Source: a virus. From it: 12,591 nt of DNA. A program made the translations under genes and the position numbers. The DNA lies in the UHGV virus genome UHGV-1346634. The stretch is one strand, 5' to 3'. The notes beneath the pieces were generated by a model. It ran no database searches and was not told the DNA's origin. It saw only the letters and a program-made list of their open reading frames with translations. Numbering within the stretch: position 1 is the stretch's first letter; every line of letters begins with the position of its first letter. Positions 2,123 through 12,416 of the stretch are shown one piece after another.

Positions 2123-4102
2123 ATGACATTTAAACACTACGATGTGGTCAGGGCGGCGTCGCCGTCAGACCTTGCGGAGCGACTGACTCAAAAACTGAAG
2201 GAGGGGTGGCAGCCATTTGGCAGTCCTGTCGCCATCACGCCTTATACCCTGATGCAGGCCATTGCGGCGGAAGGTGATGTCACCACACCTGTGGTGGTGA
2301 AGCCGTCGGATGGAGAAGGCACAGTTATCAGCACCACCAGCGAACCGGAGTATTACTTTGTTGTTGTTCTGGCGGGGCAGTCAAACTCAATGTCTTTTGG
2401 TGAAGGGCTGCCGCTGCCGGAGACATATGACCGTCCGGACCCGCGTATTAAACAGCTGGCGCGTCGCAGTACGGTGACGCCGGGTGGTGCCGCCTGTAAA
2501 TATAACGACATCATTCCGGCAGACCACTGTCTGCATGATGTGCAGGATATGAGTAACCTGAATCATCCTCATGCAGACCTGAGTAAGGGACAGTACGGTT
2601 GTGTGGGGCATGCTCTGCATGTTGCCAAAAAGCTGCTGCCGTTTATGCCTGCGAATGCGGGTATCCTTCTTGTTCCATGTGGCCGTGGCGATTCGGGATT
2701 TACTGCGGGGGCCGAGGGGGCGTTTAACGAAGCGTCGGGAGCGACCGCAGGCTCGTCCCTGTGGGGGGCGGATAAACCGCTGTATCATGACCTGGTCAGC
2801 AGAACCCGTGCGGCCCTGAAGAAAAATCCGAAGAACGTGCTGTTATCAGTGATCTGGATGCAGGGAGAAAAAGATGTCAGTTCGGGGAGACATGCAGAAC
2901 ACAATGCGCTTTTCCTTGCCATGGTAAATCAGTTCCGTACGGAACTGGCAGATGTGGCAGAGCAGTGTACTGGCGGGACAACGGCCAGCGTCCCGTGGAT
3001 TTGCGGTGATACCACGTACTACTGGAAGGAAAGGTATGCAGCGCCGTATGAGGCGGTTTACGGTGGGTATAAAGGAAAAGCTGCGCAGAATATTCACTTT
3101 GTGCCGTTGATGACGGATGAGCATGGTGTGAATGTGCCGACAAACGAGCCGTCAGAAGATCCGGACATTATCCCGGCGGGATACTATGGCGCTGCGTCAC
3201 GCACTGCCAGTAACTGGACGGCAGCCGATCGTAAAACGCACTTCAGTTCATGGGCGCGAAGAGGCCTTGTTTCAGACCGCCTGGCAGGTGCCATTTTGCA
3301 GTACGCCGGGCGGACATTATCGTTCCTTACCGGGCAGAGCGCACCGCAGTCGGGTGGTACAACGCCTGTCAGTCCGGGGACACCGGATGTTGAGAAACCG
3401 CAGGATGGCGGTGTTGCTGGTACTGGTCATGATGAGGCCGTGAGCAGTACCAGGACGGTGGCTGAATATGATGCGAACAGTGGAAATGGTGCATTGACAG
3501 AGCAGCAGTGGGGCGCTTCCGGCGGCAAAGGCACTGTGACTGATGACGGTGGACGGAAAGCGCTGCGACTGGAAAAACAGCCCGGTAAACTGACGTCCTG
3601 GAAAATGTTCCGTACTATTGCAGTGGAGGAGGCAAAAAATCTTCTCAGCAAGGGGGGGGAAATTGCCGTACGGTTCAAAATTCCGGATGGAAGCGAGCTG
3701 GTGAACGGACAGTTTGTCTTTGGTATCTACTGGCCGGTGTCGCAGTGGGCGTCAGGCGCGACAGCAAACAGTATGCTGGCATCATTCTTCCTTCAGACGG
3801 ATACATCAAATCTTAATCTGATGCACCAGAAGGGCTCCTCGAATGCACAACTGGGTACATTTGGTACGTTTGACCATAACTGGCATACGGTTGTTTTCCG
3901 CTTTGCGGGAAATAACAGCGAAAGAGTTGTTCCGGTGATTGATGGTGCAGAGCAGACGGCATTTGACCTTGTGATGTGGACAAATGATGGCTTTACAGCA
4001 GATACGCTGACGCTGACAGATATCACGGGGGCAAAAGCGACGTATCCGGTACTGCTTGATACGGTCACAGTCAAAGTTAACGAAAGCCGGGCATCATCAT
4101 AA
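2123..4102 (+). CDS. nanS-p: Prophage sialate 9-O-acetylesterase (NanS-p type)
   Basis: 659-aa ORF with RBS GGGAGG 4 nt before the ATG. SGNH-esterase motif LAGQSN (in VVVLAGQSNSM) and a DUF1737-like N-terminus. Size and position match the large esterase ORF downstream of stx in 933W-type phages (from memory). Confidence 0.8.
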   Translation: MTFKHYDVVRAASPSDLAERLTQKLKEGWQPFGSPVAITPYTLMQAIAAEGDVTTPVVVKPSDGEGTVISTTSEPEYYFVVVLAGQSNSMSFGEGLPLPETYDRPDPRIKQLARRSTVTPGGAACKYNDIIPADHCLHDVQDMSNLNHPHADLSKGQYGCVGHALHVAKKLLPFMPANAGILLVPCGRGDSGFTAGAEGAFNEASGATAGSSLWGADKPLYHDLVSRTRAALKKNPKNVLLSVIWMQGEKDVSSGRHAEHNALFLAMVNQFRTELADVAEQCTGGTTASVPWICGDTTYYWKERYAAPYEAVYGGYKGKAAQNIHFVPLMTDEHGVNVPTNEPSEDPDIIPAGYYGAASRTASNWTAADRKTHFSSWARRGLVSDRLAGAILQYAGRTLSFLTGQSAPQSGGTTPVSPGTPDVEKPQDGGVAGTGHDEAVSSTRTVAEYDANSGNGALTEQQWGASGGKGTVTDDGGRKALRLEKQPGKLTSWKMFRTIAVEEAKNLLSKGGEIAVRFKIPDGSELVNGQFVFGIYWPVSQWASGATANSMLASFFLQTDTSNLNLMHQKGSSNAQLGTFGTFDHNWHTVVFRFAGNNSERVVPVIDGAEQTAFDLVMWTNDGFTADTLTLTDITGAKATYPVLLDTVTVKVNESRASS

Positions 4103-6855: not shown

Positions 6856-7551
6856 ATGAAAGAGATGATTTCTGTCGATCATGAAATATCCATGAGTAGT
6901 CTGGATTTTCTGAATAACATTATTAACCCCATCCGGGTTGAGGCAGGGAAACCACCTCATGAACCGCGTAAGTTCCTTGCAAAAATTGAGGACGAACTTG
7001 AGCTTGAGGTAACCTGGAAAAAATTCCGGTTAAACAATAACCAGACAAGAACGGCATACTATGATCTGGATTTTGACCAGATGATGCTCGTTGGCATGAG
7101 AGAGTCAAAGGCCGTTCGTCGTTCTGTGCTGGCAAGGCTCAAAGCGATGCATGGTATTCAGATCCCCCAGACTTTACCTGAGGCGTTGCGATTTGCGGCA
7201 AAACTGGCAGAACAGAAAGCAGTGCTGGAAAATCAACTGGCAATAGCAGCGCCGAAGGCTGAATTTGTTGATAACTATGTTGAAGCATCTGGTCTGATGG
7301 GATTCCGGGAAGTTGCTAAGTTACTCGGTATCAAAGAAACCGATTTCCGGCTGTTTTTGTTGGAGAACGGAATAATGTATCGCCTCGCTGGAAAAATGAC
7401 GCCTTACTCGCATCACCTGGATGTGGGGCGGTTTAGCGTGAAAACGGGCGAGGCGGGCAATGGTCATGCTTTTACGCAGGTTAAATTCACCCCAAAAGGT
7501 GTTCAGTGGATTGCTGGTCTGCTTGCTGCATGGAGAGCTACCGCAGCATGA
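6856..7551 (+). CDS. ant: Phage antirepressor (KilAC-domain, Ant-like)
   Basis: 231 aa with RBS AAGGAA 6 nt before the ATG. C-terminal half has the KilAC/ANT-type pattern. An ant-like gene between R and Rz is a feature of 933W-type phages (from memory). Confidence 0.7.
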   Translation: MKEMISVDHEISMSSLDFLNNIINPIRVEAGKPPHEPRKFLAKIEDELELEVTWKKFRLNNNQTRTAYYDLDFDQMMLVGMRESKAVRRSVLARLKAMHGIQIPQTLPEALRFAAKLAEQKAVLENQLAIAAPKAEFVDNYVEASGLMGFREVAKLLGIKETDFRLFLLENGIMYRLAGKMTPYSHHLDVGRFSVKTGEAGNGHAFTQVKFTPKGVQWIAGLLAAWRATAA

Positions 7552-8819: not shown

Positions 8820-8833
8820 TATCTGTGCCGGGA

Positions 8834-9166
8834 ATGAAAATGAAAAGAAATCTTCCGTTAATTATTTTGTTGTCTTCTCTGGTTATGGGCTGTACGCAAC
8901 ATAAAACAGATATGCCCCGACAGTTGGTTAAGGCATTACCACAATATCCGGCCTATGCAGTGGCAAATTATATAAAGGGACGGGTTGATGTGAAGTTTGA
9001 TATTGGTGCTGATGGTACTGTCACCCGAATTGAGTTTATCCGTTCAGAGCCGCACCATCTGTTTGATGAGCAGGTTGTAAAGGCGATGGCAAAATGGCGA
9101 TTTGAGAAGGACAGGCCGCGTAAAGGCGTGAAGAAAACGTTTATCTTTAGTCCTTCTGCACCCTGA
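8834..9166 (+). CDS. Lipoprotein consisting of a TonB C-terminal-like domain
   Basis: Signal peptide with lipobox (MKMKRNLPLIILLSSLVMGC). The mature part aligns by eye to the E. coli TonB C-terminal domain: PQYPAYAVANYIKGRVDVKFDIGADGTVTRIEFIRSEP..FDEQVVKAMAKWRFE against TonB [53 protein letters not shown]. Alternative starts at 8825 (GTG) and 8840 (ATG). Confidence 0.7.
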   Translation: MKMKRNLPLIILLSSLVMGCTQHKTDMPRQLVKALPQYPAYAVANYIKGRVDVKFDIGADGTVTRIEFIRSEPHHLFDEQVVKAMAKWRFEKDRPRKGVKKTFIFSPSAP

Positions 9167-9297: not shown

Positions 9298-9498
9298 TCA
9301 TTTCTCGTTATTTGTCATGCTGGCCGGACGCAGATGCGTTGCATCTGTTGCCAGCCTTCTCCTGCAGGCTTCAATAACCCACGCTGAAAAGTTACCGGAC
9401 CCTTTATGCTCAAGGGCTATGTTGATTTGTTCAATTATGTGATTGGGGAAACGGATATTGCGGGTTGTGGTTCTGCGGGTCCGGTTTTTCGATGACAT
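9298..9498 (-). CDS. Small DNA-binding protein, ribbon-helix-helix (Arc-like); possibly YlcI/YnfO family
   Basis: 66 aa on the minus strand with RBS AAGGA about 8 nt before the ATG. The segment NIRFPNHIIEQINIALEHKGSGNFSAWVIEACRRRL resembles the Arc beta-strand plus helices pattern. Position upstream of the terminase genes matches where ylcI/ynfO sit in K-12 cryptic prophages (from memory). Confidence 0.5.
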   Translation of the reverse strand: MSSKNRTRRTTTRNIRFPNHIIEQINIALEHKGSGNFSAWVIEACRRRLATDATHLRPASMTNNEK

Positions 9499-9518
9499 AT
9501 TTATTTCCTTTACTGATT

Positions 9519-9528
9519 GTCATATGAC
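9519..9528. promoter_or_regulatory. 10-bp palindrome GTCATATGAC in the 41-bp divergent region between the RHH gene and the HNH gene
   Basis: Perfect palindrome midway between the two divergent start codons; candidate operator. Confidence 0.3.
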
Positions 9529-9539
9529 GGGGATTTTAC

Positions 9540-9905
9540 ATGGCTGAGCTTCGTACACTCCAGAGCAGAATCAAAACACTGAATACCCGACGGGTGAATA
9601 TTCTGAAGGGCGAACAGCGTCGTGTCAGTGGCAGTGCACGTGTTTCCCTCAAGCGTCATATCTGGCTCAGGGACGCCGGGCAGTGCTGTCTCTGTGGTCG
9701 TGTGGTTGACCTCTGTGACAGTGAACTTGATCACCGAATTGCACTTCAGTTCGGTGGTGGTAATGAGGAGACGAATCTCTGGACGCTCTGTACCGAATGC
9801 CATCGACAAAAGTCTGCTCGTGAAGCGGCGGGTGGTATGCCGGACCCGACGCTGCCGGAGGTGTCCGGAGGTAGTGGCAGAGCGGACGACATCATCGGAC
9901 TGTAA
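9540..9905 (+). CDS. HNH homing-type endonuclease associated with the terminase
   Basis: 121 aa with Cys-x2-Cys ... H-x ... Cys-x2-C-H arrangement (CCLCGR ... DHRIALQFGG ... NLWTLCTECHRQK), located immediately upstream of cos/TerS as in HK97-like packaging modules. Confidence 0.8.
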   Translation: MAELRTLQSRIKTLNTRRVNILKGEQRRVSGSARVSLKRHIWLRDAGQCCLCGRVVDLCDSELDHRIALQFGGGNEETNLWTLCTECHRQKSAREAAGGMPDPTLPEVSGGSGRADDIIGL

Positions 9906-9996
9906 CCCGACCCGGGGGGGGATCATCCGGCGTAAAAAACGATCGCTCCGGACACCGCGCCCCCTCTCACGCAGAGAAAAAATTCCCGTTTCAGGG

Positions 9997-10120
9997 CAGT
10001 TAACATGTTAACTGGCTGCCCGGGCATTTTTGCGGTTTTTATCTTTATTATTCAGTTTGTTGTGCGGAAAAAATGTTAACTGGCTTTTTCAGCAAATGTT
10101 AACCAGGCAGCAGTTAACAT
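9997..10120. promoter_or_regulatory. cos-like packaging recognition region: five ATGTTAAC half-sites in both orientations
   Basis: 18-bp perfect palindrome CAGTTAACATGTTAACTG (9997-10014); ATGTTAAC again at 10073-10080 and 10096-10103; inverted copy GTTAACAT at 10113-10120; an AT-rich spacer between them. Lies between HNH and TerS. Confidence 0.45.
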
Positions 10121-10194
10121 TTACGGCATGAGACGCCGGGAAAAATGGGCTGAACCATACCCGGCTGAGTGCGTTCTGGACCCGGGAGGAGGCT

Positions 10195-10758
10195 GTGCTG
10201 ACAACGCAAAAACGAAAATTTGCGCTGGCGCTCATGTCCGGGAAAAACAAAACAGCGTCAGCCATTGCGGCAGGTTATTCGGCGAAGACGGCCAGAGTTA
10301 AAGGCTCGCAACTGGCAAAAGATCCGGAAGTGCTCGCGTTTATAGCCCGTAAGCAGTGCGAGACGGTAGAGGTGGATGAGGTTCCTGTTTACCGGCAGAA
10401 AAAATCAGAGCAGGAGGATAAACCCCGTCGCCGTGAGGCGGCTGCAATACCACAGCCGGACGAAACAAATCCGGAGATGCCACCGCCCGTGGTGATATCT
10501 CCTGGTATTGAGTATATGGAGGACGGTCTTCCCGATCCTGTGAAAGCGATGGGGCGTCTTCTGGTGGAGAACATTAATACCGACCCCAGGCTGGCGCTGG
10601 ATGCGGCTTATAAGCTGGCGCAGTTCACGCACCACAAAAAAGGGGATGCCGGTAAAAAATCGGCAAAAGGTGACGCGGCGAAAAAAGCGGCTAACCGTTT
10701 TGCGGTGCCACCACCACCCCGCCTGGTGGTGAATAATGATAATGAGGGCAACGGATGA
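10195..10758 (+). CDS. Terminase small subunit (P27-family type)
   Basis: 187 aa, GTG start after GGGAGGAGG. N-terminal pattern KRKFALALMSGKNKTASAIAAGYSAKTARVKGSQL is typical of this TerS family. Stop overlaps the TerL start (ATGA). Confidence 0.75.
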   Translation: MLTTQKRKFALALMSGKNKTASAIAAGYSAKTARVKGSQLAKDPEVLAFIARKQCETVEVDEVPVYRQKKSEQEDKPRRREAAAIPQPDETNPEMPPPVVISPGIEYMEDGLPDPVKAMGRLLVENINTDPRLALDAAYKLAQFTHHKKGDAGKKSAKGDAAKKAANRFAVPPPPRLVVNNDNEGNG

Positions 10759-12416
10759 TACCAGTGTGGAGCACGGCCTGCCCGGACTGGGCAGAGCGTC
10801 TGAAAAAGGGGCTGTCGATTATTCCGTCTCCGATTTACCCGGAGCAGGCCGCACATGCCCTGGCGATTTTTAAACAACTGCGGATTGTGGATGCACCGGG
10901 CAGCCCGACGTTCGGGGAGTCCTGTGCACCGTGGGTGTTTGACCTGGTGGCGGCCCTGTTTGGCTCCTACGATGCGCAGACCGGTGTACGCCATATCAAG
11001 GAAGTTTTTATCCTTATCCCCAAGAAAAACTCGAAGTCCACGCTGGCCGCGGGGATCATGATGACGGCGCTGTTACTGAACTGGCGGCAGGCGGCGGGCT
11101 ACACCATTCTGGCCCCGACCGTGGAGGTGGCGGCTAACGCCTTCAACCCTGCCAGGGATATGGTACGACGGGACGATGATCTGGATGACCTCTGTCAGGT
11201 GCAGACACATATCCGGACCATCACCCATCGGGTGACGGACACCACCCTTAAGGTGGTGGCTGCCGATCCGAATACGGTGTCCGGTATCAAGTCCGTGGGG
11301 ACGCTGATTGATGAACTGTGGTTATTTGGCAAGCAGTACAAAGCGGAGGACATGTTACGTGAAGCCATAGGCGGCCTTGCCTCCCGCCCGGAAGGGTTTG
11401 TGGTGTATACGACCACCCAGTCGAATGAACCGCCCGCCGGGGTGTTCAGACAGAAACTGCAGTACGCCCGGGATGTGCGCGACGGCAAAATTCATGATCC
11501 GCACTTTCTGCCGGTGATATTTGAACACCCTCCTGAAATGGTGGAAAGCGGGGCTCACCTGCTGATGGAAAACCTCGCCATGGTCAATCCGAATCTCGGT
11601 TATTCGGTGGATGAGGCTTTTCTGTACCGGGAGTACCGTAAAGCCCGGGAGGCTGGTGAGGAAGCATTTCGTGGCTTCATGTCAAAACACGCCAATGTGG
11701 AAATCGGTCTTGCCCTGCGTTCTGACCGCTGGGCGGGCGCGGATTTCTGGGAGCAGCAGGGCAGGCGCGTCAGCCTGGACGATATCCTGCAGCGCGCTGA
11801 TGTGGTGACGGTGGGGATTGACGGCGGGGGCCTGGATGATCTGCTGGGAATGTACGTGATTGGCCGTGACAGGGAAACCCGCGAATGGCTGGGCTGGGGC
11901 CATGCCTGGGCGCATGAAACCGCGGTGGTCAGACGGAAGAGTGAGGCATCCCGGTTTCAGGATTTTGTGGCCTGTGGAGACATGACGATTGTCCGTCGGG
12001 TCGGGGATGACACGGCGGAAGTGGCGGAGTATGTGCGTCGTATCCATGAGGCTGAGTTACTGGATCATATCGGTATTGACCCGTCAGGTGTGGGGCAGAT
12101 TCTGGATTCACTGGCAGAAGCCGGGATCCCCGACGGAATTGTTGTGGGGATAAGCCAGGGCTGGAAGCTGGGCGGGGCCATCAAAACCACCGAGCGCAAA
12201 CTGGCTGAGGGAGTGCTGGTGCATGGTGGTCAGCCACTGATGGCCTGGTGCGTTGGCAATGCCCGGGTGGAGCCTAAAGGTAACGCCATCCTTATTACCA
12301 AACAGGCCAGCGGACGGGGGAAAATTGACCCGCTGATGGCGCTGTTCAATGCGGTATCCCTGATGTCCCTGAATCCGGAGCCCAAAAAGAAAGAATATGC
12401 GGTTTATTTCATATAA
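10755..12416 (+). CDS. Terminase large subunit
   Basis: 553 aa, translationally coupled to TerS. Walker A-like region ILIPKKNSKST and overall composition typical of HK97-type large terminases. Confidence 0.8.
   Translation: MIPVWSTACPDWAERLKKGLSIIPSPIYPEQAAHALAIFKQLRIVDAPGSPTFGESCAPWVFDLVAALFGSYDAQTGVRHIKEVFILIPKKNSKSTLAAGIMMTALLLNWRQAAGYTILAPTVEVAANAFNPARDMVRRDDDLDDLCQVQTHIRTITHRVTDTTLKVVAADPNTVSGIKSVGTLIDELWLFGKQYKAEDMLREAIGGLASRPEGFVVYTTTQSNEPPAGVFRQKLQYARDVRDGKIHDPHFLPVIFEHPPEMVESGAHLLMENLAMVNPNLGYSVDEAFLYREYRKAREAGEEAFRGFMSKHANVEIGLALRSDRWAGADFWEQQGRRVSLDDILQRADVVTVGIDGGGLDDLLGMYVIGRDRETREWLGWGHAWAHETAVVRRKSEASRFQDFVACGDMTIVRRVGDDTAEVAEYVRRIHEAELLDHIGIDPSGVGQILDSLAEAGIPDGIVVGISQGWKLGGAIKTTERKLAEGVLVHGGQPLMAWCVGNARVEPKGNAILITKQASGRGKIDPLMALFNAVSLMSLNPEPKKKEYAVYFI

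Follow-up and report, generated by a model that had tools for sequence, protein, structure and literature searches.

The DNA considered here is the virus genome UHGV-1346634, a stretch of 12,591 nucleotides referred to as the window, and the element in question lies at 9906–10194, between the gene for an HNH endonuclease and terS, which encodes the small subunit of terminase (TerS). The late region of a lambdoid prophage makes up the window, which is 95–97% identical to BP-4795, phage 2851, and many Shiga toxin (Stx) phages of the Stx1a, Stx2a, and Stx2c types, and with its gene order HNH, TerS, and large terminase (TerL) it is a prophage of the BP-4795/2851 type. The region is present in 1278 of 5426 complete Escherichia coli genomes, at up to seven copies per genome. 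A first-pass annotation made from the sequence alone had placed HNH and TerS on either side of the interval, and Pfam assignments agree on both flanks, with the HNH gene directly adjoining the terminase genes, as expected of an HNH-associated HK97-type cohesive end site (cos). Within the interval, 9914–10122 is very probably the cos of an HK97-style, HNH-associated cos-packaging lambdoid prophage, in which five copies of ATGTTAAC would form a cosB-like array for the helix-turn-helix (HTH) domains of TerS. The features are as follows, numbered from +1 at 9966, the predicted first base of the packaged DNA.

9540–9905, plus strand: gene for an HNH endonuclease of 121 aa, directly upstream of cos (PF01844, E = 7.5e-7; annotated as HNH endonuclease in relatives)
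9914–9921, plus strand: run of eight G residues (G8) on the right-end side, −52 to −45 from the top-strand nick, nine bases past the HNH stop codon, which ends at 9905
9950–9965, plus strand: predicted cleavage site, equivalent to cosN, with GGACAC followed by a predicted 10-nt 3′ cohesive end CGCGCCCCCT at 9956–9965 (by homology with Lys8385Vzw)
9966–9987, plus strand, +1 to +22: left-end core CTCACGCAGAGAAAAAATTCCC, including an A6 tract; 100% identical to the strain 48 prophage, with a sharp drop in identity at +23
9997–10014, strand-neutral, +32 to +49: proximal site, an 18-bp perfect palindrome CAGTTAACATGTTAACTG made of two overlapping ATGTTAAC copies (GTTAAC-AT-GTTAAC)
9999–10006, minus strand: copy 1 of ATGTTAAC, exact
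10005–10012, plus strand: copy 2 of ATGTTAAC, exact
10026–10072, strand-neutral: AT-rich spacer, 28% G+C against 52% in the whole window, with T-tracts at 10027, 10036, 10044, and 10056 and an A6 tract at 10068
10073–10080, plus strand, +108 to +115: distal site 3, ATGTTAAC, extended AAAAATGTTAACTGG; kept in the CH427 island, ATGTTTAT in the Ec48 and Ec4221 prophages
10096–10103, plus strand, +131 to +138: distal site 4, ATGTTAAC; kept in the CH427 island, ATGTTTAC in the Ec48 and Ec4221 prophages
10113–10120, minus strand, +148 to +155: distal site 5, ATGTTAAC; last conserved cos element, just past which similarity to CH427 stops
10184–10192, plus strand: Shine-Dalgarno sequence GGGAGGAGG of terS, read directly from the sequence
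10195–10758, plus strand: terS, 187 aa (PF03592, Terminase_2, residues 2–57 only; E = 1.7e-8, 35.7 bits against a cut-off of 26.1)
10195–10365: terS codons 1–57, Terminase_2-type HTH DNA-binding domain, proposed reader of the sites
10755–12416, plus strand: terL, HK97-type large terminase (PF03354 and PF20441; sole PDB match HK97 TerL 6z6d, E = 9e-10)

The TerS HTH domain also has a weak match to the DNA-binding domain of the SF6 small terminase (4zc3/2cmp), and GTG at 10195 yields the N-terminus MLTTQKRKFALALMSG, in agreement with homologues.

The five copies of an 8-bp motif that the first-pass annotation had described are all exact and all lie within 9999–10120. Shuffled sequence gives an expectation of 0.30 copies in the window, none of 200 shuffles reached five, and allowing one mismatch adds just two unrelated sites elsewhere. 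The 18-bp palindrome likewise stands as described. The claim that the motif occurs in both orientations holds in that two copies are on the minus strand and three on the plus strand; it is refined in that the core, GTTAAC, is a palindromic hexamer, and thus orientation is set by the AT flank alone. Oriented copies with their flanks read (a/c)(a)ATGTTAAC(t/c)(g/a)g. The array spans +34 to +155, upstream of the terS start at +230, and the distances between hexamer centres are 8, 68, 23, and 15 bp. AT-rich DNA, also claimed earlier, is found between the proximal and distal sites, where the T-tract columns of the spacer are among the invariant columns in a four-way alignment with diverged relatives; the positions of these tracts suggest that the spacer DNA is probably bent.

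The three plus-strand copies each open a short open reading frame (10005–10079, 10073–10102, and 10096–10131, of 24, 9, and 11 codons), the first two stopping at a TAA that belongs to the following motif and the third stopping at TGA. These frames were rejected as genes, as the first is not conserved and stops after four codons in CH427, and they are probably an accident of a motif that holds both ATG and TAA.

The cleavage site is placed through phage Lys8385Vzw, whose TerS is 97% identical to that of the window. Analysis of its virion reads with PhageTerm gave cos packaging with the 3′ cohesive end CGCCCCCCCT (PMC7946995), and its record begins CTCACGCAGAG and ends GGACACCGCCCCCCCT, matching the published end. 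This cohesive end maps to 9956–9965 of the window, inside the interval that the first-pass annotation had called cos-like; mapping of virion ends, which that annotation had named as the check, is thereby available through the published reads of the relative, in which packaging is by cos and not headful. The packaged DNA of the window would start at 9966 (+1), a position shown for this close relative. With the start at 9966, the repeats sit between the cleavage site and terS, which is the position of cosB, so that the cosB-like placement proposed at first pass is upheld; binding by TerS is suggested by the co-variation described below. For the window itself, a defined 3′ overhang of about 10 nt between HNH and terS follows by homology only. 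Bcep176 has the core too, and its linear record stops exactly 10 nt short of CTCACGC, consistent with a 10-nt overhang spanning −10 to −1. The IMG/VR contig L030 (IMGVR_UViG_2681813226_000009) begins one base before +1 (window equivalent 9965) and contig L130 begins 4 nt before it, while other IMG/VR contigs end 39–100 nt away. The contig ends are a weak form of end mapping because only these two fall at the nick; their starts fit, weakly, physical ends in the sequenced DNA.

In the Lys8385Vzw record (L003:185-793, MT225100.1), the 'terminase' is annotated from the CTG codon at 185, whereas all homologues agree with a GTG that lies 15 codons further downstream, and the annotated start is probably mis-called.

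The G8 run that had been noticed just after the HNH stop is a real conserved element of cos, found also in distant relatives and in HK97. A run of seven to nine G residues occurs 41–46 nt before the nick in every lineage examined, comprising both Enterobacterales relatives and GC-rich relatives, and the CH427 island keeps it while the surrounding sequence has diverged. At the right end of HK97 (L233:640-693), a G9 run followed by ATCA lies 42 nt before the end; in the window, G8 followed by ATCA (9914–9925) lies 44 nt before the nick, in a cos sequence otherwise unrelated to that of HK97. The G-run thus appears to be a general feature of this cos class, possibly with a cosQ-like role or as a contact for TerL or HNH, and no mention of it was found in the HK97 literature searched.

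In the PPompW prophages (L229:1146-2604, LC567822.1), the IS110-family element ISEc20 abuts the G-run of cos at the window equivalent of about 9917, with the junction ...AAAGTAAC/GGGGGATCATCC. These prophages lack the lysis genes and HNH, and terS follows cos with no HNH gene between; they would therefore need HNH in trans.

The repeats are tied to the N-terminal domain of TerS. Two kinds of TerS were distinguished, those beginning M(A)LTxKK, which match Terminase_2 where sampled, and those with an Arg/Gly-rich N-terminus, which have no Pfam match where sampled. All 54 unique leaders upstream of the HTH type hold at least two TTAAC/GTTAA pentamers, whereas TTAAC is found in none of five leaders of the Arg/Gly type, which instead hold two copies of AATCAGCAAATGG, two of TTCAAAT(T)GG, or GTTTGATT/AATCAAAC, abutting the start codon. 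Between L174 (Arg/Gly) and L178 (HTH), homology extends to +24 and resumes in terL, and does not cover the repeats and terS. This co-variation suggests that the repeats are the binding sites of TerS.

The Arg/Gly-type proteins, from the IMG/VR contigs L210, L120, L174, L111, L182, L110, and L201, have 105–132 aa and begin MAGVKG[KR]SGG... or MPRGG...; they have the C-terminal half and the cos core in common with the HTH type and carry direct or inverted repeats of their own.

A concerted change of all five sites is found in a second allele, carried by prophages of E. coli strain 48 and 2012C-4221, which has the same five-site layout with every site reading ATGTTTA[TC]. The sites of the strain 48 type are ATAAACATGTTTAT, AAATGTTTATAC, AAATGTTTACAG, and GGTAAACATTT, and the two loci are as follows.

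L230 (NZ_CP166879.1), 987–1240: five-site layout, helix SEKSARCKG
L234 (NZ_CP027437.1), 373–725: five-site layout, helix SEKSARCKG

DNA identity between the window and strain 48 is distributed unevenly.

HNH gene: 98.9%
−60 to −1: 98.3%
+1 to +22: 100%
Site array, +23 to +157: 64.7%
Rest of the leader: 37.5%
terS HTH region: 87%
terS linker: 47%
terS C-terminal region: 89%
terL 5′ end: 92%

From the window to strain 48, the HTH domain differs by K19R, S22A, A25E, A30E, T32S, and V35C, and the recognition helix SAKTARVKG becomes SEKSARCKG in both strain 48 and 2012C-4221. Across all loci, Thr32 pairs with GTTAAC and Ser32 with [AG]TAAAC, and this holds in two separate layouts, the compact and the five-site. 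The strain 48-type allele was found in about 10 genomes, and JNEC-KY203 and JNEC-KY177 hold the window-type allele as well.

These data bear on whether a protein other than TerS, such as a host nucleoid protein, HNH, or TerL, binds the sites, as might be supposed from the requirement of lambda cosB for integration host factor (IHF) and from the conservation of the AT-rich T-tract spacer. However, the IHF consensus WATCAANNNNTTR has no match in 9900–10200 even with one mismatch allowed, the DNA of HNH and of the terL 5′ end is nearly unchanged from strain 48 while all five sites changed, and the type of repeat tracks the N-terminal domain of TerS. Another protein in place of TerS is thus unlikely, and a host factor could additionally act on the spacer. 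The same switch bears on the proposal that the inverted repeats act as structure, either as a hairpin in the leader of the late mRNA or as a cruciform. Sites 4 and 5 do form a 10-bp inverted repeat with a 9-nt loop, and the strain 48 change keeps their complementarity, but the sites moved all five to a single new consensus and not just pairwise. Pairing also leaves unexplained site 3 and the direct repeats of relatives (GTGTTAAC-GTGTTAAC; GTTAAC-N8-GTTAAC), folding of the RNA from +1 to +229 gives nothing out of the ordinary (z = −1.17), and Rfam has no matching family (best E = 0.62), making a structural role scarcely credible.

Recognition of the sites as DNA is further supported by an element that has kept them in other surroundings. 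E. coli CH427 carries an island of about 9.5 kb, resembling a phage-inducible chromosomal island (PICI), between yljB/cspD and clpS (L232, NZ_CM166357.1 639961-649600), and the island occurs at 99% identity or more in 20 other genomes, for 21 complete E. coli genomes in all. Its genes encode an integrase, an AlpA-like regulator, an Icd-like protein, DUF4222, a primase-helicase, a fusion of ClpP-type protease and capsid protein, and a small phrog_1561 protein, and it ends in a copy of cos (about L231:845-1075) that holds all five GTTAAC sites. The island has no terS, terL, or HNH gene, and no phage gene lies downstream of its cos copy. Between the window and the island, from +1 to +157, all 38 motif bases are identical, compared with 86 of the 120 others (72%; Fisher p = 2.7e-5). 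The copy keeps G8 and −16 to +22, has diverged from −17 to −44, and loses similarity right past site 5; by this pattern of conservation, 9914–10122 is a conserved unit. Among 66 close variants, 1 of the 38 motif columns is variable, against 37 of the 191 columns in the rest of the leader (p = 0.008), and 65 of the 66 keep all five exact copies. The protease-capsid fusion of the island shows no similarity to that of BP-4795, and its capsid gene is therefore not of the type of this presumed helper.

The first-pass annotation had offered a set of operator sites as its alternative, here taken as operators for a regulator of terminase or late-gene expression. Short palindromic and inverted repeats upstream of a gene would suit such a role, and in compact relatives a site overlaps the terS start, where autoregulation is possible in principle. 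The island copy, in which all five sites persist with no downstream phage gene, argues against it, as does the position of the sites, which is fixed to the nick and not to the gene start. Lambdoid late genes are read from a Q-dependent late transcript. No credible promoter was found in 9400–10400; near the sites there is a single sigma-70-like match (10102–10073), a weak one that runs on the minus strand and consists of motif sequence. Another weak match on that strand falls within the HNH gene, and the same range has no terminator-like site. An operator function is accordingly exceedingly improbable.

The array is set in a wider context by distant relatives. A search with a TerS alignment yielded 20 prophages from other Enterobacterales with TerS 37–49% identical, or 57% over a partial match in one Acinetobacter locus, where a scan of genome contigs with the window TerS alone had found nothing. 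At least 120 IMG/VR contigs contain the core pattern CTCACGCRCAGAAAAWWTYCC, and no further relatives with mapped ends were returned when the phage collection was searched by blastn with the compact cos. The common layout is compact, with a G7–8 run, about 45 nt, and then GGACACCGCGCCCCCT / CTCACGCACAGAAAAAATTCCCCTCTGGAGGGT-GTAAACATGTTAAC-AGCGCAGAAG; the ATG of terS lies at the centre of a GT(A/T)AAC-AT-GTTAAC pair, 33 nt after the nick, and the palindrome of the window stands at the same distance. Each of the 54 unique leaders with a TerS of the HTH type has a (G)TTAAC pair about 34–50 bases after the nick, while the gene start of terS varies from +39 to +230. The motif ATGTTAAC also encodes the Met-Leu-Thr of TerS (ATG TTA AC). 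Leu codon 2 is TTA wherever the start overlaps the proximal site, including in the GC-rich Burkholderia phage Bcep176 (ATG GCT TTA ACA). In the long-leader lineages (the window, strain 48, L101, L103, L149, L152, L163, L132, and L220), it is CTG, CTT, CTC, or CTA in nine of nine, with (G)TTAAC copies still located near +34 to +50. Constraint on the motif therefore acts at the level of DNA and not through codons alone.

Given this coding role, the copies might have no function and be relics left over when the 5′ end of terS was repeatedly duplicated. The motif is the terS start itself in 17 of the 20 distant genomes and in most IMG/VR relatives, and the leader resembles a duplicated segment of Shine-Dalgarno sequence plus start. 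Relics would be expected to decay, yet the five exact copies are kept by nearly all close variants, the motif bases are intact in the CH427 island amid 72% identity elsewhere, and all five sites changed in concert in the strain 48 lineage. In addition, two copies are inverted, the GTTAAC copies of lineages L103, L149, and L169 are clearly non-coding, and the reading frame from 10005 breaks off after four codons in CH427. It is thus very improbable that the copies are without function.

Several observations weigh against a cosB-like array within cos. The ends were mapped in a relative, Lys8385Vzw, by software on short reads, and not in this prophage. The site spacings follow no simple helical phasing, and the conserved A-tract at +12 to +17 could also aid recognition. 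Most relatives manage with the proximal pair alone, so that the three distal copies might be accessory or redundant, or stimulatory and not essential. HK97 TerS recognizes a single 15-bp site by a quite different mechanism. Lastly, shared ancestry partly confounds the co-variation, even if the two switches of specificity and the three swaps of module appear to be independent.

On the reading of 9914–10122 as cos, the terminase, with the adjacent HNH, would cut concatemeric DNA at about 9956–9965, leaving the 10-nt 3′ overhang CGCGCCCCCT. An oligomeric TerS would read the proximal palindrome and the three distal sites through its N-terminal HTH domains, and bending of the AT-rich T-tract spacer may allow one oligomer to engage both clusters. 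TerS would then set TerL and HNH on the nick site, and packaging would proceed rightward into terS. The HNH and TerL genes would carry along with them the G8 run at −52 to −45 as well as the core, which extends from −16 to +22, and the array and terS would be inherited jointly as a specificity module with its left edge at +22/+23. In the ancestral layout, which is still the commonest, the proximal pair would stand alone, centred on the start codon of terS. A leader of about 190 bp may then have been gained in the E. coli Stx-phage lineage, probably by duplication of a Shine-Dalgarno-plus-start segment, of which the upstream duplicate would have kept the DNA site and the downstream duplicate the coding role, its start drifting to GTG CTG ACA, and three further sites would have been added in this lineage.

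A more far-reaching proposal is that array and TerS helix constitute a specificity code with two or more natural alleles (GTTAAC with Thr32 SAKTARVKG; GTTTA[CT] with Ser32 SEKSARCKG), which would sort the many co-resident prophages of pathogenic E. coli and the terminase-less PICI-like island into separate cross-packaging groups, the array having arisen by duplication and subfunctionalisation of the start-codon site. This is offered tentatively, being rather more doubtful than probable. If true, it would offer a ready natural system in which to test the reading of multiple sites by a ring TerS of the HTH type.

This cos type is found in Stx1- and Stx2-converting phages, and which DNA is packaged and transferred depends on cos, a choice that extends to defective prophages and to islands carrying virulence genes. 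The comparison sets likely functional limits (9914–10122) and splits a core linked to HNH and TerL from a module linked to TerS. Two natural specificity alleles and a satellite-like mimic give handles on DNA recognition by HTH small terminases, a matter debated since the HK97 structure. Nothing about the element is surprising in principle, and the comparative data resolve this cos unusually well.

Elsewhere in the window, 141–1076 encodes an N6-adenine methylase-like protein and 2123–4102 a 659-aa protein with DUF1737, SASA esterase, and DUF6645 domains, which we take to be NanS-p-like. An Ant/KilAC antirepressor gene lies between the lysozyme and Rz genes (6856–7551), and a protein with a TonB C-terminal domain is encoded just upstream of HNH (8825–9166). 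No stx gene is present in the window.

The kind of element is known, namely an HNH-assisted HK97-type cos with a cosB-like array, and the cos end of a near-identical phage has been published. A literature search of limited reach found no description of the five-site array, of its connection with the HTH of TerS, of the two alleles, or of the copy in the island. In lambda, gpNu1 binds the sites R3-I1-R2-R1 within a cosQ-cosN-cosB layout (PMC6739421). The window resembles lambda in having several short repeats, here putative TerS sites, in both orientations between the nick and the small-terminase gene, with presumably bent DNA between repeats and a further element upstream of the nick, and in the co-evolution of cosB and the TerS N-terminus as a specificity module, comparable to lambda versus phage 21. 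It differs in the overhang, which is 10 nt and 3′ in the relative as opposed to 12 nt and 5′, in its HK97-type TerL and HNH gene, in its five sites with a palindromic hexamer core, and in the lack of an IHF consensus. The Pfam families differ as well; the window has a Terminase_2-type TerS in place of the winged-helix gpNu1, and its TerL is not of the gpA type.

In HK97, TerS (gp1) binds +15 to +29, inside the left end and before its own gene, and lacks an HTH domain (PMC11331095). Its cos cleavage is assisted by the HNH protein gp74. Likenesses to the window include the order HNH, cos, terS, and terL, the 10-nt 3′ overhang (predicted for the window), a homologous TerL (6z6d), TerS recognition just inside the left end (putative in the window), and the G-run about 42–44 nt before the end. 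In contrast, gp1 reads one 15-bp site as DNA threads its ring, while an HTH-bearing TerS of the window type is presented with between two and five short repeats. The two cos sequences show no relationship, the window TerS has a Terminase_2 N-terminal HTH and is not of the gp1 family, and BLASTP between the window HNH and HK97 gp74 is not significant (E = 0.077). The same type of N-terminal HTH DNA-binding domain is found in the Terminase_2 protein G1P of SPP1/SF6. In SPP1, pacL and pacR hold multiple repeated recognition boxes, probably with bent DNA between them. SPP1 and SF6, however, are headful (pac) packagers without defined cohesive ends, whereas the window has a cos system, as its close relative Lys8385Vzw packages by cos.

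The island copy has a counterpart in the PICI EcCICFT073, which keeps cosN and cosQ and has its own cosB, read by a heterocomplex of Rpp and TerS (PMC6739421). The CH427 island is like it in having an integrase, an AlpA-like protein, a primase-helicase, a helper-type cos, and no terminase; it differs in that it copies the five putative TerS sites of the presumed helper exactly, and in that its cos is of the HK97 type and not of the lambda type.

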